Shown piece by piece: positions 15,097 to 62,937 of a stretch of DNA of 64,000 bases. How positions within the stretch are numbered: the first letter of the stretch is position 1; each line of letters begins with the position of its first letter. Source of the DNA: Labilithrix sp. (lineage in GTDB: Bacteria > Myxococcota_A > Polyangia > Polyangiales > Polyangiaceae); contig JBGAFW010000002.1 of assembly GCA_044227045.1 (NCBI GenBank), forward strand, positions 67,457 to 131,456, written 5' to 3'. The position numbers and the translations under genes were made by a program. The notes under the pieces were generated by a model. It was not told the origin of the DNA, did no database searches, and worked only from the letters and a program-made list of their open reading frames with translations.

Positions 15097-15106
15097 GGCG
15101 CGCGCC

Positions 15107-16312: not shown

Positions 16313-16332
16313 GGCTTGGCTTCTCTCTGTTC

Positions 16333-17010: not shown

Positions 17011-17042
17011 GTTGGCTGTCTTTCGTTCGTTCGCGCTCGTGC

Positions 17043-18011: not shown

Positions 18012-18415
18012 CGAGCTCCTGTCTTTCCGTCCGTCTGCCGCATTGCAGCGCGCGTTCCTGAAATCGATCGCGGCCGAATCGGCAATTCCTTCGTGATTTC
18101 GCCGGTCATTCCGCGATCCAGAGACCTCGTTTCGGAACGAGACGTTCGTTGTCGCGAACGTTTCGTTCGCGACGCCATGCCCATCCGGAACGTTCTGGGC
18201 GTCTTCTCCGACCGCGCCGTGCATCACGCGCGAACGAAGTGCAGGAAGATGGCCGCGCGCGCATCGAGGGATCCTGCACGCAACGTTGCGCAACTCGCGC
18301 ACGGCGCTGCGCGTACTGATTCAGGCCACGCCGCGCGTCCGTGCGAGCGCTGTGGATCGCCCGCGAGCGTTGCTCACGCGCGTCGTCTCATGCACGTGCG
18401 TGCATCGAAGACAGG

Positions 18416-19867: not shown

Positions 19868-19919
19868 GCGTCCAGCATAGCCGGTTTCGTGCGTCTCGAT
19901 CGCCGCGAGTGGCGCCGTG

Positions 19920-21566: not shown

Positions 21567-21593
21567 GAGAACGAGCCAGAGCCTAGCACCAAG

Positions 21594-27087: not shown

Positions 27088-27139
27088 TCGCCGCGGCAGC
27101 AAAGTGGCTCGGCGCCTCCATTGGCGCTAGCGTGGACGT

Positions 27140-32719: not shown

Positions 32720-33076
32720 TGCGATGGTCATGCCGTCGACCCAAGGGCGGGTCATGGACGGACGGGCTGCCAAATCCCCCAATGATTTTCGCGGCCGTCT
32801 CCACGCCTGCGGTTGTTTGGGCCTGTAGGGATTCCGACAGCTGAAGCCGGTCCCAACAGACAGGTCGATGTGCGTTCCGACAAATCGACCGCACCGGTTT
32901 TTTTTTGGTCGGACGCCTTCCGCGGAGCCACGCGATGCTTAGGGCACGAGAGCGCTGCGGGCGCACGAGGTGCCACCTCGATGATGGATGTGCGCCGGCC
33001 GCGGTAGAACCTTCTCGTTTTCTCTCGGTTTTCTTGCTTGGAGGCGGCCCTCCACCAACGCTACGCTTTGGCTCTG

Positions 33077-35709: not shown

Positions 35710-35855
35710 TCGGTCGTATGCGCGGGGTTTGGGGCGGAGCCCCAACGTGAAGCATACGACGCGTGAGCGAGTCTTCGAGCGAAGGGGGATCCGTTTGCGC
35801 GGAGCGCAAATCGGTCGTATGCGCGGGGTTTGGGGCGGAGCCCCAATGTGAAGAA
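35690..35855. repeat. Intergenic hairpin-repeat element, locus 1 (about 1.5 tandem units), abutting the hisZ start
   Basis: The units contain TTTGCGC-GGAG-CGCAAA and GTCGTATGC-GCGGGGTTTGGGGC-GGAG-CCCCAA-YGTGAAGCATACGAC. The same family recurs at 51456..51666. Confidence 0.7.
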
Positions 35856-42600: not shown

Positions 42601-42805
42601 CCGACGCGCAAGAGCGCGGACGTGAGCGCACACGGATTCTGGATGTGCGTCGAACCACCCGCGCTTCAAGCGAGAAGCGCGCGTGCGCGCGTGTAGGGCG
42701 CGTCGAGGCAAGGTGAGCGTCGCCACGCGAGAAGCGCGGACGCCGAATCGCTTCGAGATCTCGAGGATTCCCGTCGAAGAGGCGGGCGCAAACTGATACG
42801 TTGGG

Positions 42806-47138: not shown

Positions 47139-47501
47139 ATGATCCAAACCTATCTGCCGATGTTCTTGATGATCGCCACCGCGATCATCCTGGCTGCGCT
47201 CTTCTTCACCGGCGCGACGTTTCTTGGCGGAAAGCTCGAGAAGACGTCCGAGAAGATGAAGCCGTTCGAGTGCGGCTCCGAGAGCTCCGGAGGAAATCAC
47301 CTCAAGCTCTCCGTGAAGTTCTACCTCACGGCGATCCTCTTCGTCGTCTTCGACATCGAAGCGGTGTTCATCTACCCGTGGGCCATCCAGTTCAAGAATC
47401 TCGGCTGGTTGGGGCTCGGGTCCATGTTCGGGTTCCTCGCGGTGGTCATCGTCGCGCTCGTCTACGTCGTGAAGAAGGGAGCGCTCGAATGGGAGACATG
47501 A
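47139..47501 (+). CDS. nuoA: NADH-quinone oxidoreductase subunit A
   Basis: MIQTYLPMFLMIATAIILAALFF...PFECGSE...FDIEAVFIYPWA is the NuoA/ND3 signature. Confidence 0.9.
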   Translation: MIQTYLPMFLMIATAIILAALFFTGATFLGGKLEKTSEKMKPFECGSESSGGNHLKLSVKFYLTAILFVVFDIEAVFIYPWAIQFKNLGWLGLGSMFGFLAVVIVALVYVVKKGALEWET

Positions 47502-48085
47502 ACAAGCAGATCACGATCGAGGGAGGCGCCAGCGGCACCTCCGGGTTCGCGACGACGAAGCTCGACGCGCTCCTCGCGTGGGCACGCAAGTGGTCGCTCT
47601 TCAAGTACCCGTTCGTCACCGCGTGCTGCGGGATGGAGTTCATGGCGCTCACGAGCCCCCGCTTCGACGGCTCGGCGCGCTTCGGCGCAGAGGCCCCGCG
47701 CTTCTCGCCACGCCAGAGCGATCTGCTCTGGGTCGTCGGGACGATCTCGCAGCGCCAGGCGCCCGTGCTCAAGCGCATCTACGAGCAGATGATGGAGCCG
47801 AAGTGGGTCCTCGCGTTCGGAACGTGCGCGAGCTGCGGCGGCTTCTACGACAACTACACGACGGTGCCCGGCATCGACAAAATCATCCCGTGCGACGTCT
47901 ACGTCCCCGGATGCCCGCCGCGTCCCGAGGCGGTGCTCGATGGGCTCATGCTTCTTCAAGACAAGATCACGCACAACGCCTCGGGCGATCGCCGCCCGGG
48001 CATCGTGAAGCCACGCGAAGATCCGGTTCGCGAGCTCGTGCAGCTTGGCAAGAAGCCGTCGCGTAGGCAGACCGAGGAATCCTGA
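47498..48085 (+). CDS. nuoB: NADH-quinone oxidoreductase subunit B (20 kDa, N2 cluster)
   Basis: CCGMEFMA, GTCASCGGFYDNY, PGCPPRPEA. GGGAGA RBS. The ATG overlaps the nuoA stop (the alternative ATG at 47489 is also in frame). Confidence 0.9.
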   Translation: MNKQITIEGGASGTSGFATTKLDALLAWARKWSLFKYPFVTACCGMEFMALTSPRFDGSARFGAEAPRFSPRQSDLLWVVGTISQRQAPVLKRIYEQMMEPKWVLAFGTCASCGGFYDNYTTVPGIDKIIPCDVYVPGCPPRPEAVLDGLMLLQDKITHNASGDRRPGIVKPREDPVRELVQLGKKPSRRQTEES

Positions 48086-48086
48086 G

Positions 48087-48749
48087 ATGAGCATTCGCGC
48101 GCTCGAGACACTGAAAGAGAAATTCGGCGAGGCCATCCTCGAGACGCACTCCGAGTACGGCGATGACACCGCTGTGGTCGAGGCGTCTCGCTGGAAGGAG
48201 ATCTGCCGCTTCCTCCGCGACGACTCGCGGATGGCGTTCGACATGCCGGTCGACCTCTGCGGCGTCGACTACCCGGAGCGCACGCCGCGCTTCGAGGTCG
48301 TCCTTCACCTCTACTCGGTGAGCAAGCGCCAGCGCCTTCGTTTGAAGGCACGCGTCGGCGACGCCGAGGGTGAGTCGGCCGAGATCGACACCGTCTGTGA
48401 CGTGTGGGTCGGCGTGAACTGGTACGAGCGCGAGACCTACGATCTGATGGGGATCAGCTTCAAAGGTCACCCCGATCTCCGCCGCATCCTCATGTACCCC
48501 GAGTTCGAAGGGCACCCGCTCCGCAAGGACTACCCCGCGAACAAGGCGCAGCCGCTCGTCCCGTACCGCACGGAGGAGGAGGCCGGCCTTCCGCTCGGCA
48601 AGCTCGACCCGTTCCACGCGGACGAGGGCATGTCGTTCGGTCGCAAGCAATACGAAGGTCGCGAGCTCCACGAGACGCTCGCCGGCCAATCCGCGAAGAC
48701 CAGCACGTCTTCGTGGAATGGGCGAAGCCCCAAGGAAGGTGACAACTAA
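48087..48749 (+). CDS. nuoC: NADH-quinone oxidoreductase subunit C (30 kDa)
   Basis: NuoC core (DLCGVDYPE, VNWYERETYDLMGISFKGHPDLRRIL). Confidence 0.9.
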   Translation: MSIRALETLKEKFGEAILETHSEYGDDTAVVEASRWKEICRFLRDDSRMAFDMPVDLCGVDYPERTPRFEVVLHLYSVSKRQRLRLKARVGDAEGESAEIDTVCDVWVGVNWYERETYDLMGISFKGHPDLRRILMYPEFEGHPLRKDYPANKAQPLVPYRTEEEAGLPLGKLDPFHADEGMSFGRKQYEGRELHETLAGQSAKTSTSSWNGRSPKEGDN

Positions 48750-49963
48750 TGGAGCCCATCGATCTCGATCTCGACGACGACGAGCTCGAGCTCCCTGCGG
48801 AGCCGATGCATCTCAACATGGGCCCGTCGCACCCCGCGATGCACGGCACCGTGCGTATCGTCCTCGAGCTCTCCGGCGAGACGATCGTGAAGAGCGACGT
48901 GCAGATCGGCTACTTGCATCGCGGCTTCGAGAAGATGTGCGAGCGCGGGACCTGGGCGCAGGTCTTCCCGTACGTCGATCGCTTGAACTACGTCTCGCCG
49001 ATGCTCAACAACGTGGGCTACGCGCTCGCGGTCGAGAAGCTCTGCGAGATCGAGGTGCCCGAGCGCTGCAAGTGGTACCGCATGATCTTGGGCGAGCTCG
49101 CCCGCATCTCCGATCACCTCACGTGCAACGGCGCGATGGCGATGGAGCTCGGCGCGTTCACGCCGTTCCTCTGGTACATCAAGGCGCGCGAGATGGTGTG
49201 GGACATCCTCGAAGAGGAGACCGGCGCCCGCCTCACGCACTCGTTCGGACGCATCGGCGGCATGGCCAACCCGCCCACGCCCGCGCTGAAGGAGATGTGC
49301 CGCGAAGCCATCCCGGCGATCTTGAAGCTCGTCGAAGAAGGCGAGGGGATGCTCCTCAAGAACCGCATCTTCATCGACCGCCTCGAGAACATCGGGAACA
49401 TCTCGCAAGAAGACGCGATCGCGCTCTCGTGGACGGGCCCGTGCCTTCGCTCCACCGGCTGCGCCTACGACGTCCGCAAGGCGCACCCGTACCTCAAGTA
49501 CGACGAAGTCGACTTCGACGTCCCGGTCGGCACGAAGGGCGACAACCTCGATCGCTTCCTCTGCCGCCTCGCGGAGCTCCGTCAGAGCTGCAAGATCATC
49601 TTGCAGTGCTGCGAGCGCATGGCCGACGAAGGCCCGGTGAACGTCGATGACCCGCGCGTCATCTACCCGCCGAAGCAGGACGTCTACACGACGATCGAAG
49701 CCACGATCCAGCACTTCAAGCTCGTGATGGAGGGCGCGAAGGTCCCGAAGGGCGAGGTCTACTCCTACACCGAGGGCGGTAACGGCGAGCTCGGCTTCTA
49801 TCTCGTGTCGGATGGCACGGGGACGCCCGCGCGCGTGCGTATCCGCCCGCCGTGCTTCCCGATTACGTCGGGGCTCTCGATGCTGATCAACGGCGCCATG
49901 CTGAGCGACATCGTCCCCACGTTCGGGTCGCTCAACATGATCGGCGGCGAGTGCGATCACTGA
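48749..49963 (+). CDS. nuoD: NADH-quinone oxidoreductase subunit D (49 kDa)
   Basis: MHLNMGPSHPAMHGTVRI, GYLHRGFEKMCE, and the C-terminal RIRPPCF. Start by TAATG overlap. Confidence 0.95.
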   Translation: MEPIDLDLDDDELELPAEPMHLNMGPSHPAMHGTVRIVLELSGETIVKSDVQIGYLHRGFEKMCERGTWAQVFPYVDRLNYVSPMLNNVGYALAVEKLCEIEVPERCKWYRMILGELARISDHLTCNGAMAMELGAFTPFLWYIKAREMVWDILEEETGARLTHSFGRIGGMANPPTPALKEMCREAIPAILKLVEEGEGMLLKNRIFIDRLENIGNISQEDAIALSWTGPCLRSTGCAYDVRKAHPYLKYDEVDFDVPVGTKGDNLDRFLCRLAELRQSCKIILQCCERMADEGPVNVDDPRVIYPPKQDVYTTIEATIQHFKLVMEGAKVPKGEVYSYTEGGNGELGFYLVSDGTGTPARVRIRPPCFPITSGLSMLINGAMLSDIVPTFGSLNMIGGECDH

Positions 49964-50033
49964 GGCGATCCTCTCGCTTCTCGATCTCTCACTCCTCGTG
50001 TGACACCCGACGGTGACGCGGTACGCTGGGCGG

Positions 50034-51395
50034 ATGGCTCTTCCGCCCGGTCCGCGCACGCCGATGATCTGGCAGACGGTACGGTTCGTCATGCAACCGA
50101 GGTCGTACGCGTCCTCGATGCGCCAACACTTCGGCGACGCCGTCAGCTTTCACACGGCGCTCGGCAAGGGCATGGCTGTCTTCGAGGCTTCGCTCGCGCG
50201 AGAGGTCTTCGCCGCGCCTCCCGACACGTTCGAGACGATCGAGTCGGTGGGGGCGATCTTCGGTGAGCGCGCGGTCATCGCGACGTCCGGCGTGCTCCAC
50301 AAGAAGCAGCGAAAGATCCTGAATCCTCCGTTCCACGGGGCGCGGATCAAGGCGCTGCTCGGCACGATCCAGCGCGTCGTGAAGCGGCACGTCGACGCGC
50401 TCACAAAACCGCTCCGCGTCGGCGACGTCGTCAAGATGACGGACATCACGCAAGCGATGACGCTCGACGTGATCCTCGAGACCGTGTTCGGCTCGAACGC
50501 CGACGACGGTCGCCTCGATCGAGGTCGCGAGGTGCTCATCGGCATCACCCACGGCTTCAACCCCGCGATCATCACGACGAAGCGGCTTCACAAGCCGTGG
50601 TTCCCGCCGTGGCGCAAATACCTCGGGGTGCGCGCGGAGTTCGACGCGTGGGTGATGTCGCTCGTCGACGAGCGACGCAAGCAGGGTGACCTGGGCGAGG
50701 ACCTGCTCGGCCTCTTCTTGTCGACGCGCTACGACGACGGCGCCCCGATGAGCGACGCGGAGATCAAGGACCACCTCATCACGCTGCTCCTCGCGGGGCA
50801 CGAGACGAGCGCGATCGCGATCGCATGGGCGGTCTACTGGATGCTTCGCGAGCCGTCCGTCCTCACGCGTGTGCGCAAGGAGGTCGCCGCGCTCGGGCCC
50901 GCATGCACGGCCGAGCAGCTCGCGCGCCTCCCGTATCTGCAGGCGGTCGCCTCGGAGTCGCTTCGGATCGAGCCGGTCGTCACGGACGTCGTCCGCCGCT
51001 GCCGATCTCCGCTCACGATCCGCGACTGGACGGTGCCTGCGGGCGATCACATCGCGGTGATGATCGGATCGATCTTGAACGACGAGCGCGTCTTCCCAAA
51101 ACCGAACGAGTTCAAGCCCGAGAGATTTCTCGATCGCAGCTACCACGCAGGCGAGTTCCTTCCGTTCGGCGGCGGCCAGCGCCGTTGCCTCGGTGCGGCG
51201 TTCGCCGAGGCCGAGCTCGCGATCGCGATCGCCACGATCGCGTGCGACCTCGAGCTCGAGCTCGCCGAGCCGAGCTACGTCGAGCGATCGGTCCGCCGCA
51301 ACATCACGATGGGTCCCTCGCATGGCGTCCGCGTGCGTGTGCTCGGCGCTCGCCCAGCCGTCCACGAGACGACACGCATCGCCGCCGCATCCTGA
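50034..51395 (+). CDS. Cytochrome P450
   Basis: I-helix AGHETS. ESLR (ExxR). Haem loop FGGGQRRCLGAAFA. Begins 70 nt after nuoD on the same strand. Confidence 0.85.
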   Translation: MALPPGPRTPMIWQTVRFVMQPRSYASSMRQHFGDAVSFHTALGKGMAVFEASLAREVFAAPPDTFETIESVGAIFGERAVIATSGVLHKKQRKILNPPFHGARIKALLGTIQRVVKRHVDALTKPLRVGDVVKMTDITQAMTLDVILETVFGSNADDGRLDRGREVLIGITHGFNPAIITTKRLHKPWFPPWRKYLGVRAEFDAWVMSLVDERRKQGDLGEDLLGLFLSTRYDDGAPMSDAEIKDHLITLLLAGHETSAIAIAWAVYWMLREPSVLTRVRKEVAALGPACTAEQLARLPYLQAVASESLRIEPVVTDVVRRCRSPLTIRDWTVPAGDHIAVMIGSILNDERVFPKPNEFKPERFLDRSYHAGEFLPFGGGQRRCLGAAFAEAELAIAIATIACDLELELAEPSYVERSVRRNITMGPSHGVRVRVLGARPAVHETTRIAAAS

Positions 51396-51455
51396 ATCGG
51401 AGCGACCCGGCCGTTCGGTCCAACCCGTCGGATCCACCTCGCGCGTCCGCCGAGG

Positions 51456-51666
51456 AAGCATGCGACCCCTGAGCGAGTCTTCGAGCGAAGGGGGATCCGT
51501 TTGCGCGGAGCGCAAATCGGTCGCATGCGCGGGGTTTGGGGCGGAGCCCCATGTTGAGCGTGAAGCATGCGACCCCTGAGCGAGTCTTCGAGCGAAGGGG
51601 GATCCGTTTGCGCGGAGCGCAAATCGGTCGCATGCGCGGGGTTTGGGGCAGAGCCCCAACGTGAAG
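51456..51666. repeat. Intergenic hairpin-repeat element, locus 2 (about 2 tandem units of roughly 105 bp)
   Basis: Same family as locus 1. The outer stem is GTCGCATGC/GCATGCGAC here versus GTCGTATGC/GCATACGAC at locus 1, a compensatory change. The GGAG-looped hairpins are conserved. Confidence 0.7.
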
Positions 51667-51761
51667 AGCTTGCCCGACGCGCGAGAGGCGACTACACACG
51701 GCAGCACGAACCGGTAACGGGGAGCTGGTAGAAACGCCGCGCCTGCAAAACGCGGAGAGTC

Positions 51762-52406
51762 GTGTCCGAGAATCGTCGCGAGACGGAGTCCGAGTGGTTG
51801 GTATACCGAGTCGATGGGCCACCGATGGGGCCTATGACGACGTCGGCTGTGGCGGAGGCCATCCTGACGGGCAGGCTGCCGCCCGACGTGTGGATCGCCG
51901 CGCCGACCGCGATGCGGTGGCTCCGCGCGATCGACGTCCCGGTGATCGCATCGCTCGCGTTCGCCGAGCCGACGCGCCGTCCACGTGAGTCGGGCATGCA
52001 ACGCGTGCCCGCGCCGCCTGGCGTCGGGATCCCACCGCTCAAGCCGCCACCGCCGCCGCCGCGCAAGCTCGACGCGACGGTGAAGAGCGCCGGCACGCCC
52101 GCCGAGCCACCAAGCCTTGGGTCGCCGCCCACGCCCGTCACCGTCGACAGCAAAGACGCGCTCTTTGGCCCCGTCACCGATCGCGACTCCGAGCCTGCGC
52201 CGACGGTCCGATCGACGAACCCGCGCGGACCTGACGGCTTTCCGATCCCGACACCCACGCCGACCCCGACGCCCACGCCCACGCCGCCTCGGCCGATCTA
52301 CCGTGGCGGAGAGACGCTCGAGTCACCCGGTCAGGACCGCGGCCGCGAGGAGGGCGAAGGTGGAAGCAGCGGAGAGGTGCCGCGGAAGAAGATGCTCGCG
52401 TCGTGA
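51762..52406 (+). CDS. Hypothetical protein with an N-terminal GYF-like (DUF4339-like) domain and a Pro-rich tail carrying (TP)6
   Basis: EWLVYRVDGPPMGPMTTSAVAEAILTGRLPPDVWIAAPTAMRWLRAIDV. GTG start. Confidence 0.45.
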   Translation: MSENRRETESEWLVYRVDGPPMGPMTTSAVAEAILTGRLPPDVWIAAPTAMRWLRAIDVPVIASLAFAEPTRRPRESGMQRVPAPPGVGIPPLKPPPPPPRKLDATVKSAGTPAEPPSLGSPPTPVTVDSKDALFGPVTDRDSEPAPTVRSTNPRGPDGFPIPTPTPTPTPTPTPPRPIYRGGETLESPGQDRGREEGEGGSSGEVPRKKMLAS

Positions 52407-52437
52407 GGGCGATCGCACAGAAGCGCGCAGTCGTGAC

Positions 52438-53241
52438 TCAGTGAAAGGCGCTGCACACGACGCTGAGGACGAGCAGGCCCACGATCACGCCGACCGACCC
52501 GACGCGGCGAACGAACGGTGATGGCGTAGGCAGCCGCTTTCCGGTGAGCACCGAGAAGAGCATCGGCGACGCCGCGAGGACGTGAACGCCGTTCAAGACC
52601 GAGAAGAAGCCGCGCAGCTCGCCGTCCACGTGCACGATGCCGAGCGTCACGATGACGAACATGAGCGCGGAAGTCGCGACCGTGACGAGCGCGCCCCACA
52701 GCGCGACGCGGTAGAGGCCAAGAAACCCGATCAGGTACGCGACGCCGGAGAAGGCCATCAAGAGGCCCAAGCCCGCCGAGTCGCCACGACCGACGAGCGC
52801 GACGACGGCGAAGAGCAAAAACGTCTGCGCGTCGGCGAGCGCGAACACCATCAAGAGCAGCAGCGAGCTACGAAACGCAGCGGGCGCGTACGCGTCGGTC
52901 TCCGTCGCCTCGGCGAGCCCGTCCCTGCCGATCGCGAGCAGCGCGACACCGCACGTGCACGCGAGCTCGACGCCGCCCGTTCGCTCGCGACCGTTTCCAA
53001 CGACGGTGAGCACGACGCCGAGCGCGAGGTTCGACCACCACACCGCGCGCGCGAGGAGCTGCGGCCCGAGCTTCGTGACATGGACCGTGAACGCGGCGAC
53101 GACCAAGAGCGAGAGCGGAACGCCGAGGATCCACCAATCCGACGGGGCGGTCTGCGCGAGCGCGGCGAGCGCGCCAAGGCTGAGCGCGCTCGCGACGAGG
53201 CGTCGAGCGAGCCGCGCAGGGTTCATGAGCACCGTGCTCAT
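52438..53241 (-). CDS. Integral membrane protein (about 8 TM), hypothetical
   Basis: Internal ATG (MSTVLMNPARL), coupled by ATGA to the upstream zinc-ribbon gene. Multiple hydrophobic helices. Confidence 0.55.
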   Translation of the reverse strand: MSTVLMNPARLARRLVASALSLGALAALAQTAPSDWWILGVPLSLLVVAAFTVHVTKLGPQLLARAVWWSNLALGVVLTVVGNGRERTGGVELACTCGVALLAIGRDGLAEATETDAYAPAAFRSSLLLLMVFALADAQTFLLFAVVALVGRGDSAGLGLLMAFSGVAYLIGFLGLYRVALWGALVTVATSALMFVIVTLGIVHVDGELRGFFSVLNGVHVLAASPMLFSVLTGKRLPTPSPFVRRVGSVGVIVGLLVLSVVCSAFH

Positions 53242-53555
53242 CGAAACGGACCGTCCTTCGCGTTCGTCGTGTCGATCAACTTGATGCCTCGCGCTGGATC
53301 CGGGGTGAGGCCGCGGAAGCCATCGGCCCAGAGCTCCGAGTAGCCGCACCCATCGCAGAGGAAGAGGTCGAAGTGACCTTGCGGGCGGACGCGGCCCCAC
53401 TGCGCGCCGAGGACGCTCTTCGCGGCGGCTGGATCTGGCTGGTGCGGGACGACCGGAAGCTCGCGGCCGTCCGCGCTCTCACCCGGCACGCGGTACTTCT
53501 CGATCACCCAGATTCGCTTCGACGCACACTTCGGACAGCGGAGGAGGTTCTTCAT
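53238..53555 (-). CDS. Small zinc-ribbon protein
   Basis: MKNLLRCPKCAS...LFLCDGCGYSELW gives two CxxC pairs. The stop overlaps the downstream start (ATGA). Confidence 0.45.
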   Translation of the reverse strand: MKNLLRCPKCASKRIWVIEKYRVPGESADGRELPVVPHQPDPAAAKSVLGAQWGRVRPQGHFDLFLCDGCGYSELWADGFRGLTPDPARGIKLIDTTNAKDGPFR

Positions 53556-53829
53556 GACGATCCAGTCACGCTTCAGAGTAACGCACGTGGCGGATTGTTC
53601 CTGCACCTGCGCTCCTCTTTCGAACGCGCGAGATGGCCGGCATGTGCGCGAGCGTTGGTTGCGCCGCGATCCAAGCGCTCCCGGCGCGCAGATCCGGTGA
53701 GCATGTGAGCCTTGCGCAAGTCGCGCACGATCCGGACGACCTGGGTGGAACATTGTCTTCCCATGGTGAAACCGGTGCTCGTCCGACGGATCGCGCTTTG
53801 CACGGAGGGAGCGCGAAGGGAACGGTTGT

Positions 53830-54717
53830 ATGGTGCACAGAATTCTTCCATTCGCTGCGCTGCTGGTGGTCGCCGGTTGTGGCGTGAGCACTTCCGGAGG
53901 AATCGAGCCGCTCAGCGGAGACGACCCGACGGGCCAAACGCCCGCGAGCGGCGCGCCGAAGACCCCGGCGAGCAGCAGCTCGAACGGAAAGGCGCCAACT
54001 CCCATTCAAGACGTCCCGGCCTCGGAGATCCCGAGCGCGCCGCCTGCGAGCAACACCCCTGCGCAGCCGATGCCCACCGGCGAGCCTGCGACGGCGATCT
54101 CGCCATTTCATCCGAGCGGCAGTCTCACGTACCAGAGGCCGATCATCTGGACGATCAGCGCCTTCGACGAGATGACGCCCATCCATTACACGACGGACGG
54201 CAGCGCACCCGACTCGAGCTCGCAGACGGGGATCGGGAAGGTGACGCTCCAGAACCTCGCCGAAGGCACCCGCATTCGATGGGTGGCGGCGACGGGCTCG
54301 ACGATTCACGAGATGACGGTCCACGTCAACTCGTCGCTCGCGACCGAGACCCATCACATCGTCGAGAACGTTCGCTTCACCGCGTCCGGCGGACCCATCG
54401 TCCACGTGAAGCCCGGCGCGACCGTCGCGGGAAAGGCCGGCGCCGCGGTGTGGAACGGCCAGAGCAACTGCCCGACGTGCATCGATCAGATCACGCTTGG
54501 GATCTCCTCGGCGGCGACCTGCCTCGTGAGCGTTCAGCCCAACACGTTTCCTGGAAGCGCGGGCTCCGACGTGAGCTTCAGCATCAAGGCGCCGACCGCG
54601 CCAGGCGTCTACAAGATGCGGACCGGGTTCACGCAACAATACAAATGCGCGGACGCGATCGGCCAAGCGCTCCACGACACCGAGGTCGGTACGATCATCG
54701 TCGACGCGAACCCGTAA
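53830..54717 (+). CDS. Lipoprotein with a chitobiase/hexosaminidase-C-like beta domain
   Basis: Lipobox (LLVVAGCG). IHYTTDGSAPDSSS resembles a CHB_HEX_C-like motif. The antisense ORF 53566..55101 is Arg-rich junk. Confidence 0.6.
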   Translation: MVHRILPFAALLVVAGCGVSTSGGIEPLSGDDPTGQTPASGAPKTPASSSSNGKAPTPIQDVPASEIPSAPPASNTPAQPMPTGEPATAISPFHPSGSLTYQRPIIWTISAFDEMTPIHYTTDGSAPDSSSQTGIGKVTLQNLAEGTRIRWVAATGSTIHEMTVHVNSSLATETHHIVENVRFTASGGPIVHVKPGATVAGKAGAAVWNGQSNCPTCIDQITLGISSAATCLVSVQPNTFPGSAGSDVSFSIKAPTAPGVYKMRTGFTQQYKCADAIGQALHDTEVGTIIVDANP

Positions 54718-54734
54718 CGGCGTCCTGGCCGACG

Positions 54735-56102
54735 TCACACGAGCCGCGAGATCGGGCGCTTCGCGATGACGATGAAGCGCCAGAGGAGCGCGATCGCGAC
54801 GAGCGCGAGCCCCGCGAGGAGACCAATCCAGAGGCCCTTCGCGCCGAAGCCGGCGTAGAAGCCGAGCCAGATCGCGAGAGGGAAGCCGACGAGCCAGTGC
54901 GCGGCGACATTGGCGACGAACGAGAAGCGCACGTCGGCCGCGCCCCGAAGCGCGCCCGCCGCGACGCCCTGGACGCCGTCGAAGAGCTGGAAGGCCGCGG
55001 CGACGACGAGCAGGCTCGCGCCGAGCTCGATCACGGCGGCGTCTTCGGTGAAGGCCGCGACGAGCGGACGACGGAGAGCGAGGAAGGCGACCGCGCTGCA
55101 TGACATGAAGAGCGCCCCGAGGGCGATGCCGATGAGGCCGGGCGCGCGCGGCGATCGCCGCTCACCGATCGCATGGCCCACGCGAACGGCGGTCGCGCCG
55201 CTGATGCCGAGCGCGCCCATGAACGTGAAGCTCGCGAGGCCGATGGCGATCTGATGCGCGCTCACGGCGACGCGGCCGAGGCGTCCGGCGAGGACCGCGA
55301 CGAACGCGAAGACGCCGATCTCGGCGAGCAGCTGAAGGCCGATCGGCATGCCGATGCGAAGCACCTTGCGGATGGGCAGCTCGCTCCCTTCGGGCACCTC
55401 GGCGTTCGCGCCCTCTCCGTGGCCCGAGACGGGCCGCATCTTCCAGACGGAGGCGAGCACCCAGAGCGCGAGGACCCACGTCGAGATCGTGTTCGCGAGC
55501 CCGGCGCCGAACGCGCCGAGGCGCGGAAAGCCGACCGCCGGCAAATGGATCGCGACGAGCGCCTCGTCGCCCCGCACGAGGAGGTTGCACACGATGATGT
55601 TCACGACGTTCGCGACGCCCGAGGCGACGAGCGACGGCATCGTGCGCTCGTGCGCCTGGAGGAACGACTTGGCGCTGAGGAAGATGCAGAATGCAAGCAT
55701 CCCGGGGAGGTTCGGATAGACGAAGGCGCGCGCCGGCTCGATGAGCTCGGGCTCGACGCCGATGAGGCCGAGCGTGTACGTGGCGGCGATCGCGAGGACG
55801 GCGCATGGGACCCAGACGAGGAACGACGCGGCGAGCGTCGCGCGAAGCGAACGCCAGGCGTCGAGGCGATCGCTCGCGCCGACGGCCTGGGAGGCGAGCG
55901 GCTCGAGCGCCGAGGCCACGCCGATGCCCACGGCGATCGCCGCGAAGTTGATCGATCGACCGACGCTCGCGCCACCCAGATCGGTGGCCGAGGCATGACC
56001 GAGCACCGCGACGTCGACGAGGCCGATCGCCGTAAGCCCGAACTGCGCCATCGCGATCGGCGTCGCGAGGCGGGCGATCGTCCACGCTTCGCTCTTGAGC
56101 AC
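54735..56102 (-). CDS. MATE-family multidrug/oligosaccharide efflux transporter
   Basis: 12-TM MATE pattern (ARLATPIAMAQFGLTAIGLVDVAVLGH). A GTG start at 56102 gives 455 aa; the track ORF extends a further 162 aa upstream, which is implausible. Confidence 0.75.
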   Translation of the reverse strand: MLKSEAWTIARLATPIAMAQFGLTAIGLVDVAVLGHASATDLGGASVGRSINFAAIAVGIGVASALEPLASQAVGASDRLDAWRSLRATLAASFLVWVPCAVLAIAATYTLGLIGVEPELIEPARAFVYPNLPGMLAFCIFLSAKSFLQAHERTMPSLVASGVANVVNIIVCNLLVRGDEALVAIHLPAVGFPRLGAFGAGLANTISTWVLALWVLASVWKMRPVSGHGEGANAEVPEGSELPIRKVLRIGMPIGLQLLAEIGVFAFVAVLAGRLGRVAVSAHQIAIGLASFTFMGALGISGATAVRVGHAIGERRSPRAPGLIGIALGALFMSCSAVAFLALRRPLVAAFTEDAAVIELGASLLVVAAAFQLFDGVQGVAAGALRGAADVRFSFVANVAAHWLVGFPLAIWLGFYAGFGAKGLWIGLLAGLALVAIALLWRFIVIAKRPISRLV

Positions 56103-56569
56103 AGCGGCTGGGTTTAAGGTCGCCGCGGGAGTGGGCCCGGACGAGATAGGGGAGGACAACGGCCGTACATCGTAGCACTTGGGTCGATCCTCCGGCTCGG
56201 CCTGGACAGCGGAGCGACCAATTCGAGAAAGCGAACGGAGACGCGGTGTTCCCCTTACGATGTAAATCGGTGCTTGATAGCGACGATCTTCGCCCCACGC
56301 TGAACGCCGAACCGCGCGTGCCGTTTGGCTCCTTAGCAAGTGATCGCGCTCGTCATACCGCTGCAGCAGGAAGCCACGAGGGGAGTCCGCGCCCCGAGCA
56401 AAACGCCAAATTCGCCAGGAAAAATGTGGGTCGCGTCCGCGTCGCGCCTTGACGAGAACGCGAATTCGGCGCCTCATCGAAGAGGGCTTTCGCTTGGTGT
56501 CCGGCCAGGAGACACGGCGATCCATTTGATCGCTTCTGGTCGCGAGGCTAGTGGAGGGGAGACGAAGTA

Positions 56570-57184
56570 ATGCCGCCGAAGCCACCAACGAACAAGACGA
56601 AGACAGAGCCGGGTCTCGGCAGCGGCGGAGGAATGCCCCGCATGGACAGCGCCGAGATGAAGCGCGTTCGGGAGAGCTTTCGCAGCCACCCGGACGAGCC
56701 GGTCCCCGAGTCGCGCGACGCGTCGCGGCCCCGCCTTCGTGACAGCGTTCGCCGTGAGGATCCGGACGACGCTCCGATCCAGACGAAGGAGTCGGTCTCG
56801 CCGAACCCGCCGCGCGCGTCGCTGACGCCCGGGCAGGCGCCGCGATCCAACCCGCCGCGGAAGACGGCTTCGTGGGAGCCCGAGGCTCCGACGGGCACGC
56901 GCCGCAAGGCGCGGAGCGGTCGCCCGCCCGTGACGGTGGACGAGGTCGGCATCGGCGCCGTCAAGCTCGCGCGCAAGTCCGTTCGTGAGAGCGCCCCGAA
57001 GCTCGTCGCGTCGCGCGGAATGATCGCCAAGGCGCCGATCGACACGCGCGCTGCGTTCGTCCTCTCGCTCGTCGACGGACGAAACACGATGGGCGCGATC
57101 GTCGACATGTCCGGGATGCTCGAAGACGAGGTCAAGGCGATCCTCGAACGCCTCGCGCGTCTCGGCCTGATCAGCCTTCCGTAG
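56570..57184 (+). CDS. Hypothetical basic/Pro-rich protein with a conserved C-terminal domain
   Basis: Strong RBS (GGAGGGGAGACGAAGTAATG). C-terminus AAFVLSLVDGRNTMGAIVDMSGMLEDEVKAILERLARLGLISL. Confidence 0.55.
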   Translation: MPPKPPTNKTKTEPGLGSGGGMPRMDSAEMKRVRESFRSHPDEPVPESRDASRPRLRDSVRREDPDDAPIQTKESVSPNPPRASLTPGQAPRSNPPRKTASWEPEAPTGTRRKARSGRPPVTVDEVGIGAVKLARKSVRESAPKLVASRGMIAKAPIDTRAAFVLSLVDGRNTMGAIVDMSGMLEDEVKAILERLARLGLISLP

Positions 57185-57309
57185 GGACAGCCAGGATCCG
57201 GCTCGAAACGGCGCTGCGGCCGCCGGGATCCCCAGCAAAATCTTCGCCGGTCACGGAACAAGCTTCCAACCGCCAGGGATTCGTCGTAAATCCGGGCCCA
57301 GCGGAAGCT

Positions 57310-58911
57310 ATGCCCACCTTCAAGCTCGACGGAAAAGACATCCCCTTCGAAAAAGGGGACTCCATCATCAAGGCCGCGGCACGTCAGGGAATCGAAATCC
57401 CTCACTACTGCTGGCACCCAGGGCTCTCGGCGCCTGCGAACTGTCGCATGTGCCTCGTCGAGATCAAGCCCGCGGCGAACCAGCGCGCGATGATGCTCGA
57501 CATCCTCCAGTGGGATCCGGCGCTCGGCGACTACCGCCCGCAGCAGAAGCCGAAGCTTCAGCCTGCCTGCCAGTACCCCGCGACGGAAGGCCAAGAGGTC
57601 CTCGCCGACACGAGCAAGCACGTCGCCGAGGCGCGCTCCACCGTGCAGGAGCTGCTCCTCCTCAATCACCCGGTGGACTGCCCGATCTGCGACCAGGCCG
57701 GGGAGTGCAAGCTCCAAGACTACTGGCTCGAGCACCAGCACGCGCCGAAGCGCATGCGCGACGAGCCCATTCACAAGCCGAAGGCCGTCGTGTTCGGCCC
57801 CACGATCGTCTACGACGCCGAGCGCTGCGTCATGTGCACGCGCTGCATCCGCTTCATGGAAGAGGTCGCGAAGGATCCCGTCCTTGATATGCGCGAGCGC
57901 GGCAACCTGAACGAGATCTTCGTCGCGCCGGGTCGCCAGCTCGAAGGCCACTACACCTTCATGACCGAGCACGTGTGCCCGGTCGGCGCGCTCACGACGA
58001 AGGATTTCCGCTTCAAGGCGCGCGTGTGGTTCCTCCGCACCGCGAAGAGCATCTGCCAAGGCTGCGCGACGGGCTGCAACGCGCACCTCGACTTCGATCC
58101 GCGCTGGAACAAGGCGTATCGCTACCGCCCGCGCGACAACGAGGCGGTGAACAAGTACTGGATGTGCGACGAGGGCATGCTCTCGTACCGCGCCGCGCAC
58201 GTCGGCCGCGTCACGAACGCGAAGGTGAAGAGCAAGAAGGCGAGCGTCGACAGCGCCCTCGCCGAGATCACGAAGCGTTTCGGTGACACGCCGAAGGACT
58301 CGATCGCGTTCGTCCTCTCCGCGCAGCACTCGCTCGAGGACAACTGGGCGCTCCGCGAGCTCGCGCGTCTCGCCGGCTCGAAGACGATCTACGTCACCGG
58401 CGCAGGCCCCGGCTACAAGGACGACATCCTCATCGACGAGGACAAGAACCCGAACACCGCGGGCGTCGTCGAGCTCGTCCCCACGCTGCGTCCGTTCCCG
58501 CAGCTCATCGAAGACATCCGCCAGGGCAAGGTCGCGCACGTGATCGCGCTCGGCGGCGTCACGCCGCGAAACGACCCCGAGGACGCGACCGCGCTCGGCA
58601 TGGTCAGCGCGCTCGTGACCGTCGCGTCGCACGAAGGCGCGCTCACCGAGGCCGCGCACATCACGCTGCCGGCGACGTCGTGGGCCGAAGCCTCGGGGAC
58701 GTACGTCAACCGCCAGAATCTCCGCCAGCTCTCCGACAAGGCGATCGAGCCGCAAGGCTCGTCGAAGCCCGCGTGGGAGCAGCTCCGCGCGATCGCGATC
58801 GCGCTCGGCCTCGAGCCCACGTGGACGAAGCTGAAGGACGTCCGCTCGAACCTCATGGCCGCGGCGGCAGCGCCGTCGCAACCCACCCTCGAAGCACAGG
58901 TGACGCAATGA
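57310..58911 (+). CDS. nuoG: NADH-quinone oxidoreductase subunit G (short form, 533 aa)
   Basis: 2Fe-2S (CWHPGLSAPANCRMCLVE). 4Fe-4S His/Cys (HPVDCPICDQAGECKLQD, CVMCTRCIRF). Truncated molybdopterin-like domain. Confidence 0.85.
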   Translation: MPTFKLDGKDIPFEKGDSIIKAAARQGIEIPHYCWHPGLSAPANCRMCLVEIKPAANQRAMMLDILQWDPALGDYRPQQKPKLQPACQYPATEGQEVLADTSKHVAEARSTVQELLLLNHPVDCPICDQAGECKLQDYWLEHQHAPKRMRDEPIHKPKAVVFGPTIVYDAERCVMCTRCIRFMEEVAKDPVLDMRERGNLNEIFVAPGRQLEGHYTFMTEHVCPVGALTTKDFRFKARVWFLRTAKSICQGCATGCNAHLDFDPRWNKAYRYRPRDNEAVNKYWMCDEGMLSYRAAHVGRVTNAKVKSKKASVDSALAEITKRFGDTPKDSIAFVLSAQHSLEDNWALRELARLAGSKTIYVTGAGPGYKDDILIDEDKNPNTAGVVELVPTLRPFPQLIEDIRQGKVAHVIALGGVTPRNDPEDATALGMVSALVTVASHEGALTEAAHITLPATSWAEASGTYVNRQNLRQLSDKAIEPQGSSKPAWEQLRAIAIALGLEPTWTKLKDVRSNLMAAAAAPSQPTLEAQVTQ

Positions 58912-60332
58912 GCTTCGGAATGTCGGTCGTCTGGACCGCCGTAAAAATCCTCGTGATGGTCGGCTTCGTCGTGAACATCGGCGCGCTCCTCACGTGGTAC
59001 GACCGTCGCGGCGGCGCGATGATGCAAGATCGCGTCGGCCCGAACCGCGCAGGCTTCAAGCTGTTCGGGATCGAGATCCGGGTCGCCGGTCTCCTCCACA
59101 CCGCTGCCGACGGCCTCAAGTTCTTCACCAAGAAGGACTTCATGCCGCCGAAGGCAGACAAGCTCCTCTTCAGCCTCGCGCCGATGCTCGCGCTGGCGCC
59201 CGTCATCGCGCTCACAGCGGTCATTCCGTTTGGCGATGTCATCAGCCCCGAGTCGATCGTGCGCACGGTCTGCAAGAACGGCGCGCAGTACGCCGCGATG
59301 ACGAACGGCGCCTGCCCGCAAGGCTTCTCGCCCGAGACGGTGTGGCCGGCGGTCTCTCGCTACGGCCTCGCGAGCGCCGGCGGCTCCATCCCGCTCCAGA
59401 TCGCGCCGCTCAACGTCGGCATCCTCTACGTCTTCGCGATGGCCGGTCAGGGCATCGTAGGCGCCGCGATCGCAGGCTGGTCGAGCGACAACAAGTTCTC
59501 GCTCATGGGCGCCCTTCGCGCCGCGAGCCAGATGGTCAGCTACGAGGTCACGATGGGCCTCACGCTCATCGGCGCGATGATGATCTACGGCTCGGTTCGC
59601 CTCGAGGACATGGTGATGTGGCAGGGCGAGAACACGTGGGGCATCTACGTGCAGCCCGTCGCGTTCTTCTTGTTCTTCGCGTCCGCGATCGCCGAGACGA
59701 AGCGCATCCCGTTCGACCTCCCCGAGGCCGAGAGCGAGCTCGTCAGCGGGTACTTCACCGAGTACTCCGGCATGAAGTTCGGAATGTTCTACTTCGCCGA
59801 GTACATGGAAGTGGCGACGAGCTCGATGCTCCTCGTCACGATCTTCCTTGGCGGTTGGAACATGCCGTTCCTCCACCGTGACGGCCTCACGATCGCGTTC
59901 GGCGAGTCCGTGCTCCTCCACACGCGCCTGCCGCACATCTGGGTGACGATCATCGGCGTCCTCTCGTTCTTCGGGAAGACGATCCTCATCTGCTGGCTGC
60001 AAGCGTTCGTTCGCTGGAGCCTCCCGCGATTCCGCTACGACCAGCTCATGAAGCTCGGCTGGACCGTCCTCCTGCCGGCCTCGCTCGCGAACATCTTCGC
60101 GACGGGCATCGTGTGGCTGGCGCTCCAGTCTGCGGGCGACTCGACGGCGAACGGCCTCAAGGTCGCAGCCGACGTCACGCAAGGCATCACCGCCGCGACC
60201 CTCACGGGCCTCATCATCTGGGCGGTCATCGGCTTCGCACGAACACCTCCACACAACGAGTCGATCGTCGGCTCGAGCGCGAAGCTCGCGGCCGCAGCCG
60301 GCGGCACCAAAGAAGCGCCGATCACGGCGTAG
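58908..60332 (+). CDS. nuoH: NADH-quinone oxidoreductase subunit H, with insertions and a C-terminal extension (474 aa)
   Basis: VGPNRAG, GWSSDNKFSLMGALRAASQMVSYEV, IPFDLPEAESELVSGYFTEYSGMKFG, LPRFRYDQLMKLGW. The ATG overlaps the nuoG stop (ATGA). Confidence 0.9.
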   Translation: MSFGMSVVWTAVKILVMVGFVVNIGALLTWYDRRGGAMMQDRVGPNRAGFKLFGIEIRVAGLLHTAADGLKFFTKKDFMPPKADKLLFSLAPMLALAPVIALTAVIPFGDVISPESIVRTVCKNGAQYAAMTNGACPQGFSPETVWPAVSRYGLASAGGSIPLQIAPLNVGILYVFAMAGQGIVGAAIAGWSSDNKFSLMGALRAASQMVSYEVTMGLTLIGAMMIYGSVRLEDMVMWQGENTWGIYVQPVAFFLFFASAIAETKRIPFDLPEAESELVSGYFTEYSGMKFGMFYFAEYMEVATSSMLLVTIFLGGWNMPFLHRDGLTIAFGESVLLHTRLPHIWVTIIGVLSFFGKTILICWLQAFVRWSLPRFRYDQLMKLGWTVLLPASLANIFATGIVWLALQSAGDSTANGLKVAADVTQGITAATLTGLIIWAVIGFARTPPHNESIVGSSAKLAAAAGGTKEAPITA

Positions 60333-60357
60333 CCTTCGTAGGCTCAGAAGACAGGCG

Positions 60358-61398
60358 TCAGAAGACGTCAGTCTTGTCGTTCCGCGCGTTCGCGGTCCGC
60401 GGCGCATCCATCGCGACGCGGATCTCGCGAACCTGCTCGGGCGTGACCTCGACGGTGAGGCTCTTGCGCGCGCCGTTCGGCGCCGTGAGGACGAGCACGT
60501 GCCGTCCAGCGATGACCGGTCGATGGAAGACATGGCCGGGGCCGATCGGGACGCCGTTGTCGAAGATGGCGTCGCATTTCGGCAGGCACACCACCGTGAG
60601 CGCTCCCATGCGATTCGGCGCGGCCAGCGGCGCGCCGCTCATGTTCGCGCTCGCGTTCGGGTCGTCCTCGTCGGTGGGCGGAGCGACCATCGCAGGTCGT
60701 CGTCGACGGATCGCGGCGGTCGTGGTCGGCGGCGGGGAGGGGTGCGTGTCCGCCAGCGAGGCGCCGATCACGACGCCGTGCGGTGAGGGAGCCGACGGTT
60801 CGTTGTCGATCGACGCCGTCGCCGCGGGCGTGACGACCGGCAGGGCCGGCGCAGGCGTCGTGAACGGGATCGTCGAGGCATGCTCCGCCGGCGCAAAGGC
60901 GAGCTGATCGATCCCGAGGATCGTCGCCCCAAGGAGCGTCGCGGCGGCGGCACCTGCGAGCGCGACCTTCCACGCCTCGCGGCGTTCGAGCCGATGAAGG
61001 ACGCCCGTTGTCAGCGCGGTCGACTCCTGCCGCTTCACGCGCCGCTCGTCTCCGTCACCGGTGCGTTGAAGCTCTGCGAGGCGTGCGGCGATGGCTTGCT
61101 CCTCGGCCTTCGCCGCCTCGAGGTCGGCGCGCGCGCGGGCGATCGCAGCGCGAAGCGCGTCCGCACGTCGAGCGAGCGCATCGAGCTCGGCGTTGACGTG
61201 CTGACCGGAGGCTGCGGTGGTTGCGGAGGCTGCGGCGCTTGCGGAGGTTGCGGCGGCTGCGGTGCCTGCGGGGGCTGCGGCGCTTGTTGCGGCTGGGGCT
61301 GCGGCGCTTGTTGCGGCTGCGGTGCCTGCGGGGGCTGTGGTGTTTGTTGGGGCGAACGTGGTCTCGAGCTCGTGTTGCCGCCCGTCGTCGCTGCTCAT
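60358..61398 (-). CDS. PEGA-domain protein with Ala/Thr-rich repeats, a coiled-coil and a TM segment; antisense between nuoH and nuoI (start could be 61497)
   Basis: C-terminal PEGA ([43 protein letters not shown]). TM segment ([18 protein letters not shown]). Contains the 60-bp tandem DNA repeat. Confidence 0.55.
61207..61350. repeat. Imperfect tandem repeat of about 60 bp (2 copies) with nested GCGGCTGCGG-type 9-12 bp sub-repeats, inside the PEGA gene
   Basis: GGCTGCGGTGCCTGCGGGGGCTG recurs at 61255 and 61315. It encodes the [15 protein letters not shown] low-complexity segment. Confidence 0.5.
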
Positions 61399-61527
61399 GA
61401 GGTCATCGTATCCGTTCCTCGTTCGCGGGCGAGCGGCCACCTCGGCCGCGAAAAGCCCGCCCGCTGGCCGTGCCCGCGATCCATTGTGGAATTCCACGTG
61501 ATTTCTGGGTATGGTCGCCCCAAACCG

Positions 61528-62187
61528 ATGCCGCGAGCCTTTCCAAAGAAGCCTGCCTCACCGACCAACGCGAAGGTGGTCGAGTACGTCGAGAAGACCG
61601 CGACCGTGCAGTCTTACCTCCCGGAGATCTTCAAAGGTCTCGGCACGACGATGCGCCACTTCTTCAAGAACACGCGCGACATGGTTCGAGGCATCCGCCC
61701 CGACCCGGTGACGGAGCGATGGGAAGACGGCGTCACGACGATCAGCTACCCGGAGCAGAAGCGACCCTACCCAGAGCGCTTCCGCGGCGTTCACCGCCTC
61801 ACGCTTCGCGAAGACAACAGCCCGCGTTGCGTCGCGTGCCTCTGCTGCTCCACGGCATGCCCCGCGCAGTGCATCTTCATCGAGGCGGGCGAGTACCCCG
61901 AAGGCGACAAGCGTCGCGGCTACGAGCGCTTCCCGGTGAAGTTCGTCATCGACGAGCTGCGCTGCATCTTCTGCGGCTTCTGCGTGGAGGCGTGCCCGTG
62001 CGATGCCATCCGTATGGACACGGGCATCCACGCCGTGCCGTACGACTCGCGCGACCAGTTCATCTACGGCAAAGACATCCTCACCGGCATGACCGCGCGC
62101 GACGGCTCGAAGGAGACCGCGAATCCGCGTCACGAGCCGGGCGATCCGACGCACCCTGGTCTCACGCGCGACCATATCCATCACTGA
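61528..62187 (+). CDS. nuoI: NADH-quinone oxidoreductase subunit I (2x[4Fe-4S])
   Basis: [12 protein letters not shown] and [12 protein letters not shown]. Internal ATG (MPRAFPKKP); the upstream part of track ORF 60880 is antisense to the PEGA gene. Confidence 0.9.
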
Positions 62188-62223: not shown

Positions 62224-62937
62224 ATGACGAGCGCCGATCTCACGGGACGTATTGGCGGCTACAAGGGCGTGGCGATCCGTTGTCCGGGTTGCGGCGAGCC
62301 GATGCGCCAACACAACCTCGAGGAGGCGAAGGCGGAGGTCGACGTCTGCGACGCGTGCGGCGGCATGTGGGTCGACTGGTTCGACGGCGAGGTCCGCGTG
62401 ATCGCGACGGAGACCTTGCGCACGAGCGATCCCGGCCCAGCGCCTGCAGCAGCCACCACAGCCACCACGGCCACGACCACGACCACGACCACGACCACCG
62501 TCGCCGCGCCTTCGTCGAAGGACGAAGGCCGCCCGTCCCGCAACGAGGCCGTCGCGATCGGCGCGTGTCCACGCTGTCATGCGCGCCAGCTCGTCGCGGA
62601 GCGCTACGAGGTGAAAGCGGAGGTCGCGAGCGCCCGCATCGAAGACCGGACTTCGATCGTCGCAGGAAAGACGGGCGCCGAGCTCCTCCGATGCGAGGAC
62701 TGCATGGGCTCGTTCGTCTCGCGATCGAGCGCGGAGGTCCTCTCGTGGCTCTCGTCGCACCATGACGAGCCGCCGCCGCAAAGCCAGGCGCGCCCCGACG
62801 CGACGAAGGCGCTCAAGCCCGTACCGTGGGATCGCTTCGTGGCCCTCATGAAAGGCCTGCTAGGCCTTCGCAAAGAGGGCGCAGCGAAGGCTGAAGCGAA
62901 GCCCGAAGCGAAGAAGCCCGCAGCCAAGCCAACGTGA
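62224..62937 (+). CDS. Double zinc-ribbon (zf-TFIIB-like) protein with a poly-Thr run and a Lys/Ala/Pro tail
   Basis: CPGCGEPM...CDACGGMWVDWFD and CPRCHARQL...CEDCMGSFV. The run TTATTATTTTTTTTT comes from (ACS)n at about 62452-62500. Confidence 0.6.
   Translation: MTSADLTGRIGGYKGVAIRCPGCGEPMRQHNLEEAKAEVDVCDACGGMWVDWFDGEVRVIATETLRTSDPGPAPAAATTATTATTTTTTTTTVAAPSSKDEGRPSRNEAVAIGACPRCHARQLVAERYEVKAEVASARIEDRTSIVAGKTGAELLRCEDCMGSFVSRSSAEVLSWLSSHHDEPPPQSQARPDATKALKPVPWDRFVALMKGLLGLRKEGAAKAEAKPEAKKPAAKPT

Follow-up and report, generated by a model that had tools for sequence, protein, structure and literature searches.

What are we to make of a complex I (nuo) locus that lies in three pieces and carries neither nuoE nor nuoF? 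The question is raised by the window, by which we mean the whole 64-kb stretch of DNA that was analysed (G+C 68%), which comes from a Labilithrix-like member of the Polyangiaceae (Myxococcota) and in which nuoA-B-C-D, a cytochrome P450 gene, about 6 kb of unrelated genes, nuoG-H, one gene on the opposite strand and finally nuoI follow one another, an order on which Pfam searches, direct reading and the initial annotation of this DNA all agree. Our answer, which we hold with considerable confidence, is that these genes are one half, nuoABCDGHI, of the complex I set that myxobacteria carry in two clusters, and that insertions specific to the lineage have broken this half up. Four kinds of observation carry it, namely the identities of the genes, their order, their patterns of conservation across relatives and the intact cofactor ligands of their products.

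The relatives in question were collected by a NuoG scan, with one genome taken per species, which gave 80 loci (numbered with an L below), all from Polyangiaceae, Labilithrix or Polyangiales and each spanning up to 10 kb on either side of nuoG; the locus of the L. luteola type strain DSM 27648 (CP012333.1, 9.63-9.65 Mb) was used as an extra comparison. Window proteins were mapped onto the relatives by tblastn to give nuo order and cargo, and gaps were taken from the tblastn coordinates, the nuoD-nuoG interval being measurable in 70 relatives and the nuoH-nuoI interval in 68. In the window itself, gene boundaries were set by direct reading of the sequence and families by Pfam and NCBIfam profile searches (Table 1). 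Labilithrix metagenome-assembled genomes encode NuoG proteins with 85% identity to that of the window, and L. luteola one with 76%.

Where, then, are the other subunits? A tblastn search with the E. coli proteins (expectation value, E<=1e-4) finds none of nuoE, F, J, K, L, M or N in the 64-kb window, Pfam scans of 30 open reading frames (ORFs) from its first 46 kb contain no Nuo family, and the signature motifs of NuoE and NuoF give one chance match only, at about 17470, so that three kinds of search bear out the earlier remark that nuoE and nuoF lie outside the window. The same E. coli subunits have no match in any of the 80 relatives' loci, within 10 kb of nuoG, which makes their lack a property of the clade rather than of this genome; and every one of these loci that is long enough to show it has the order nuoA-B-C-D-G-H-I. 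Separate nuoEFJKLMN and nuoIHGDBA clusters were described in myxobacteria by Thomas et al. (2008, PMC2330069), who found both to be syntenic in Anaeromyxobacter, Myxococcus xanthus and Stigmatella aurantiaca, and across bacterial clades the splitting of nuo clusters is reported to be common (PMC12361115; PMC4758237). The supplements of PMC12361115 make no mention of Labilithrix, Sorangium, Polyangium or M. xanthus, and Spero et al. (2015) make none of Myxococcus. It is indeed an ancestral trait that the locus lacks nuoEF, and we would expect nuoEFJKLMN to lie elsewhere on the chromosome and the enzyme to be assembled from both halves, as in the characterised myxobacteria, with the present locus supplying NuoA and NuoH (membrane and quinone site), the Q-module (NuoB, C, D and I) and NuoG.

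Might the enzyme instead do without NuoE and NuoF altogether? A complex I fed by another donor (flavodoxin, ferredoxin or of F420 type), much as in Campylobacterota, would account for the absence of both genes from the window and from within 10 kb of nuoG in the 80 relatives, and would suit a NuoG that is truncated to 533 amino acids (aa) and scores too low for the NuoG equivalog model. We nevertheless think this very unlikely, since in myxobacteria that share the nuoIHG(C)DBA cluster a second one supplies nuoEF together with nuoJ-N (PMC2330069), nuoD and nuoG are less than 150 nt apart in 46 of 70 relatives, with no substitute genes at the E/F position, and the genes inserted between them in this genome are not conserved. 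NuoG, moreover, retains every ligand of the canonical N1b-N4-N5 wire. The initial annotation had raised an alternative electron-input module as one way of reading the locus, and with those ligands kept, and no room for such a module wherever nuoD and nuoG are adjacent, the idea has found no support. A more radical version, in which the Polyangiaceae lack nuoEF entirely, the short-NuoG cluster docks some other input module and the flanking winged-helix-turn-helix-like and zinc-ribbon proteins are new accessory subunits, strikes us as extremely unlikely.

Do the subunits themselves look like those of a working enzyme? Judged by its cofactor and quinone-site ligands, the enzyme looks canonical. 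NuoB, at 198.5 bits against a cut-off of 116 for the NCBIfam NuoB subfamily, has all four Cys ligands of cluster N2 (TACCGMEF, GTCASCGG and VPGCPP can be read in the translation), NuoI has two CxxCxxCxxxCP motifs for clusters N6a and N6b, and the Cys/His ligand motifs expected in NuoG for N1b, N4, N5 and N7 are all present. NuoD passes its NCBIfam equivalog model (NF004739, 467.7 bits against a cut-off of 360) and keeps the quinone-site His and Tyr (H38 and Y87 in Thermus), its PAMHG aligning with the PAAHG, and its DRLNYVS with the DRLDYVS, of solved structures. The DRLNY in place of DRLDY matches by alignment the D86N change reported for antibiotic-producing Myxococcales, where NuoD substitutions have been proposed to give resistance to the producers' own quinone-site inhibitors (PMC4758237).

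Some things do, of course, weigh against our answer. The position of nuoEFJKLMN elsewhere in this genome is extrapolated from another class of the phylum, that of Myxococcus, Stigmatella and Anaeromyxobacter; the putative promoters discussed below are assigned from the conservation of sequence, and a generic sigma-70 scan finds no promoter in the region; and NuoG, NuoH and NuoI all score under their NCBIfam equivalog cut-offs, which marks them as atypical subunits, NuoG being short and NuoH long. NuoG reaches 345.7 bits against TIGR01973, where the cut-off is 470; among solved structures it matches the 75-kDa subunit best (E=6e-61), and it lacks some 190 aa of the Mo-pterin-like domain. In NuoH 387 residues cover 296 positions of the NADHdh profile, and aligned to E. 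coli NuoH the protein has some 87 extra residues; NuoI is below the cut-offs of the NCBIfam NuoI models (for example, 96.4 against 135). The NuoH insertion holds two Cys, the protein also has a C-terminal extension, and the NCBI name for NuoG here is '2Fe-2S iron-sulfur cluster-binding protein'.

Such scores, together with antisense genes that interrupt the operon, might suggest a decaying, non-functional copy in a cell whose working complex I comes from another, complete operon. We find this scarcely credible, the least so of the readings that we weighed. All seven nuo ORFs are intact, with a G+C content at third codon positions (GC3) of 0.85-0.93, and are 72-93% identical to those of the closest Labilithrix-clade relatives (L001-L004); all cofactor ligands, the upstream motifs and the translational couplings of A/B, C/D and G/H have been kept; and the short NuoG and long NuoH are common to all relatives, which makes them traits of the clade and not local damage. 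As to the couplings, nuoA-D had been described as tightly coupled, with ATGA and TAATG overlaps, and direct reading places the ATGA at nuoA/nuoB and the TAATG at nuoC/nuoD, while nuoB/nuoC show a 1-nt gap in place of an overlap; the ATGA between nuoG and nuoH was also correctly noted and is seen at 58908. The start of nuoI deserves a word, because a 435-aa ORF at 60880-62187 (+) could pass for a long NuoI. We rejected this candidate, as the NuoI proteins of relatives start at MPRAFPKKP, an N-terminus that is kept in the alignment, and the upstream part of the ORF is an antisense shadow of the gene on the opposite strand, fused to nuoI; gene callers could well report an over-long NuoI from it.

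If the half-set is ancestral, is its scattering ancestral too? It is not, and here the relatives are most informative. The nuoD-nuoG gap is below 150 nt in 46 of the 70 relatives, between 150 and 1000 nt in six and at least 1 kb in 18 (1.4-7.7 kb), whereas in the window it is 7346 nt. For nuoH and nuoI, which are 1195 nt apart in the window, 63 of 68 relatives have less than 150 nt, two have 150-1000 nt and only three (L004, L011 and L021) have 1 kb or more. Because both pairs are adjacent in most relatives, and because the cargo differs between genomes, the scattering is derived. The initial annotation had suggested an ancestral scattered arrangement, and that suggestion stands for the absence of nuoEF, seen across the 80 relatives' loci, but not for the scattering. 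Similarly, the thought that relatives might show the arrangement as a conserved feature of the clade, ancestral rather than novel, largely holds, in that the split half-set is found clade-wide, although the insertions vary by genome. The nuoD|nuoG junction is interrupted in every Labilithrix-clade locus with a measurable interval, including that of the L. luteola type strain, and the 18 interrupted genomes of 70 suggest that insertion recurs at this site in Polyangiaceae. Beyond the Labilithrix clade, insertions of 1.4-7.7 kb at this junction are seen in L018, L044, L048, L050, L051, L055, L057, L059 and L060.

The cargo itself is a mixed bag. In the Labilithrix clade, what lies between nuoD and nuoG often includes a MATE gene (L001, L003, L005, L007, L008, L011, L014 and L. 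luteola) and, immediately ahead of nuoG, a small basic protein, to which L011 adds a serine dehydratase and L008 a Ham1-family gene; in L. luteola the interval holds MatE, a periplasmic binding protein, two kinase genes and three unknown genes, followed by nuoGHI. At the other junction, nuoH|nuoI, L021 encodes a DUF3618 protein. Only L004, whose NuoD and NuoG are 92% and 81% identical to those of the window, shares the P450 (54%), the membrane-protein gene (44%), the zinc-ribbon gene (56%) and the antisense gene between nuoH and nuoI (47%). The pattern is one of passenger genes piling up at permissive intergenic sites, and neither of ancestral scattering nor of a functional module. In the Labilithrix lineage, an originally contiguous seven-gene operon would have been broken at nuoD|nuoG, and in this genome and a few relatives a second time at nuoH|nuoI, in both cases by species-variable cargo (here the P450, the MATE pump and membrane, lipo-, zinc-ribbon and coiled-coil membrane proteins).

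Is the P450, at least, more than a passenger? As a functional partner of nuoA-D, selected for co-expression, it could modify quinones or detoxify inhibitors of complex I produced by the myxobacterium itself or by competitors, and its position is certainly suggestive: as had been noticed earlier, and as direct reading and the terminator scan confirm, it follows nuoD on the same strand after 70 nt with no terminator-like hairpin between them, and strong hairpin repeats come after it. A P450 is also found between nuoD and nuoG in L004, and the DRLNY of the window NuoD recalls the substitutions for which inhibitor resistance has been proposed in myxobacteria (PMC4758237). Even so, we consider such a partnership unlikely. 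A P450 occupies the junction in only one of about 16 Labilithrix-clade relatives and in none of the other 64 loci, and this single counterpart, in L004, shares no more than 54% identity and lies roughly 1 kb away from nuoD, which leaves a functional link to respiration unsupported; unrelated cargo fills the same site in other genomes, and the protein reaches no characterised family, all its NCBIfam scores being far below the cut-offs. As a P450 it matches positions 1-448 of 462 in PF00067 and contains the haem motif FGGGQRRCLG, with an in-frame GTG at 50013, and among solved structures it comes nearest to CYP51, CYP170A1 and CYP120, with no better than E~1e-32.

How might a locus in this state be transcribed? 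With opposite-strand genes between them, the three nuo blocks have to be transcribed separately, and insertions at both junctions make it most likely that the nuo genes are expressed as three units. The first of these would be nuoABCD, with probable read-through into the P450 and an end at the palindromic repeats, and this co-transcription of the P450 is plausible given the absence of a hairpin after nuoD in the terminator scan. That said, the scan gives 13 terminator-like sites, close to the 8.5 +- 3.4 expected from shuffled sequence, and no sigma-70 promoter, which makes it uninformative here. Upstream of nuoA, the TTGACT...ACTACAAA block is kept in the alignments of L001, L002, L005, L007 and L014, and more loosely in L003 and L008.

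The second unit would be nuoGH, with a conserved promoter-like motif of its own. TTCCAA-N12-CGTCGTAAAT, which can be read as a -35/-10 pair separated by 17 nt, occurs once, directly before nuoG, in 17 of 17 Labilithrix-clade sequences (the window and 16 loci), has a single degenerate match elsewhere on both strands of 1.33 Mb of related sequence, and is missing where nuoD and nuoG are adjacent, all of which fits a candidate promoter dedicated to nuoGH. It does not recur before nuoA or nuoI. The loci listed with it at nuoG are L001-L014 and L082. The third unit would be nuoI, probably with the Zn_ribbon_TFIIB gene downstream, homologues of which follow nuoI at 0-50 nt in L001-L004, L007-L009, L021, L022, L044 and L048 (25-50% identity), so that this gene is possibly co-transcribed with it. 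For nuoI, the TATGGT hexamer might conceivably play a promoter role, a TAnnnT being found by alignment 9-12 nt before the ATG where a genome has a spacer there (L002, L003, L004, L008, L011 and L021). We also considered, and rejected, an operator shared by the three units: GTGGAATTCCAC, a perfect 12-nt palindrome at 61486-61497, 30 nt upstream of nuoI, occurs once in the window, has near-matches at chance level and is not conserved in L004.

Table 1. Features of the nuo locus and of the genes inserted in and next to it, in window coordinates.
Feature	Position	Strand	Description
Promoter-like TTGACT-N18-TACAAA	47038-47067	+	Upstream of nuoA; direct reading
nuoA	47139-47501	+	120 aa; Pfam Oxidored_q4 E=8e-32; ATG read at 47139
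nuoB	47498-48085	+	195 aa; ATGA overlap with nuoA; Pfam Oxidored_q6 E=7e-25
nuoC	48087-48749	+	220 aa; Pfam Complex1_30kDa E=2e-45; 1-nt gap after nuoB stop
nuoD	48749-49963	+	404 aa; TAATG overlap with nuoC; Pfam Complex1_49kDa E=2e-99
Cytochrome P450	50034-51395	+	453 aa; ATG 70 nt after nuoD; Pfam p450 E=3.5e-71
Palindromic repeat, two tandem copies	51455-51658		97 nt, 107-nt period, 99% identical; just after P450
Pro-rich protein	51762-52406	+	Sub-threshold GYF_2 at N-terminus, E=0.014
Multi-pass membrane protein	52438-53241	-	267 aa; no Pfam match; GC3 0.83
Small Cys-rich, zinc-ribbon-like protein	53238-53555	-	Weak Zn-ribbon matches only, E 0.02-0.05
Predicted lipoprotein	53830-54717	+	Lipobox LVVAGC; weak CHB_HEX_C_1, E=9e-6
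MATE efflux transporter	54735-56168	-	Pfam MatE E=4.7e-48
Basic protein	56570-57184	+	About 200 aa; weak winged-helix C-terminus, HTH_47 E=0.022 only
Promoter-like TTCCAA-N12-CGTCGTAAAT	57264-57291	+	18 nt upstream of nuoG ATG
nuoG, short form	57310-58911	+	533 aa; Pfam Fer2_4, NADH-G_4Fe-4S_3, Fer4_Nqo3, Molybdop_Fe4S4, Molybdopterin
nuoH, long form	58908-60332	+	474 aa; ATGA overlap with nuoG; Pfam NADHdh E=3.7e-101
Opposite-strand gene	60358-61398	-	1041 nt, 346 aa; no significant Pfam or NCBIfam match
TATGGT, -10-like hexamer	61511-61516	+	11 nt upstream of nuoI ATG
nuoI	61528-62187	+	219 aa; Pfam Fer4 dicluster families
Zn_ribbon_TFIIB-domain protein	62224-62937	+	PF13453 E=1.5e-11; 36 nt after nuoI

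What else do the inserts contain? The tandem palindromic repeats fold into long hairpins (-117 kcal/mol, z=-2.2), and a further 1.5 copies, 88-96% identical, lie about 16 kb upstream at 35692-35854; no copy is present in any of 81 relatives' loci, and the 97-nt element looks like a genome-specific repeat of the repetitive extragenic palindromic or miniature inverted-repeat transposable element kind. The notion that these repeats were the agent of insertion has no support, the relatives' loci holding no copies. Among the labels first given to the genes of the 6-kb insert, MATE is secure, but those of GYF and zinc ribbon rest on sub-threshold matches (E=0.014-0.05). Homologues of the Pro-rich, GYF-like protein (48-58%) follow nuoD in L001 and L002; the membrane-protein gene and the Cys-rich gene, which overlap by 4 nt, are also found together in L004, and thus travel as a unit; and in 11 Labilithrix-clade relatives the basic protein has a conserved counterpart right before nuoG (34-67% by tblastn). 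In L. luteola, a 219-aa protein with weak helix-turn-helix matches has the same pre-nuoG position (L082 9138-9797).

The opposite-strand gene between nuoH and nuoI was at first called a PEGA gene, and of this description the gene is real and the label is wrong. Its coding GC3 (0.81, and 0.86 in the C-terminal part) and an L004 homologue that matches it in strand and position identify it as a true gene, and its product has an Ala-rich and coiled-coil region, a transmembrane segment and a beta-rich C-terminal domain. PEGA was rejected as its identity: there is no match to PF08308 even at E<=10, and BLASTP against the PEGA domain of a kinase in the window gives only E=0.35. The genuine PEGA domain of the window belongs to that Ser/Thr kinase, at 19920-21593. 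Further afield, the region upstream of the nuo genes (13500-21593, 33008-34678 and 42797-44320) is rich in typical myxobacterial signalling genes, including three Ser/Thr kinases, an FHA-sigma54 activator and an FHA protein. Positions 27131-28126 encode a XerC/D-type tyrosine recombinase, and the Pfam matches of the first 46 kb are to kinases, housekeeping enzymes, a sigma-54 activator and the like.

Why, then, should anyone care about such a locus? In bioenergetic terms it carries little weight, since the missing N-module is explained by the arrangement published in 2008 and the fragmentation by the insertion of cargo. We think that its value lies rather in being a natural example of how a translationally coupled complex I operon tolerates being broken up into at least three units that are probably promoted separately, with a promoter-like motif conserved in the clade at the break before nuoG, and in the caution that it offers to annotators: NuoG goes by another name at NCBI, three of the subunits miss their equivalog cut-offs, and any operon-based detection of complex I would call these genomes incomplete.

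How does it compare with what is already known? Myxococcus xanthus, Stigmatella aurantiaca and Anaeromyxobacter dehalogenans have the same A, B, C, D, G, H and I set in the same order, with no E/F or J-N in the cluster; relative to them, the present locus has an extra 7.3 kb between D and G and 1.2 kb between H and I, opposite-strand genes included. Closer to home, L. luteola has nuoB-C-D, then about 8 kb of unrelated genes with MatE and a small pre-nuoG protein, then nuoG-H-I with the same nuoG motif, but it differs in its periplasmic binding protein and Ser/Thr kinases, in a MatE gene on the same strand, in having no P450 and in the adjacency of nuoH and nuoI. In Campylobacterota, two dedicated genes stand at the E/F position and nuoJ-N come next in the same operon. 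The likeness to this variant, which PMC12361115 mentions as lacking NuoE and NuoF, is a nuoG in a cluster without nuoE/F, whereas here nothing is conserved between nuoD and nuoG and J-N are absent as well. Unrelated ORFs also lie among the nuo genes of Rhodobacter capsulatus without abolishing complex I, as Dupuis et al. (1998) are cited in PMC4758237, and on that account the operon has all 14 nuo genes on one strand and in one transcription unit, where ours is partial and has some of its inserts antisense. Finally, Bdellovibrio and the cyanobacterial NDH-1 have their nuo/ndh genes spread over several loci for one enzyme (PMC4758237; PMC12361115), with other break points and subunit sets, cyanobacterial NDH-1 being truly without NuoEFG. 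Set beside these systems, the Labilithrix locus is an ordinary, insertion-riddled case of the published split arrangement, and what is new in it is its lineage-specific break-up and the conserved promoter-like motif before nuoG.

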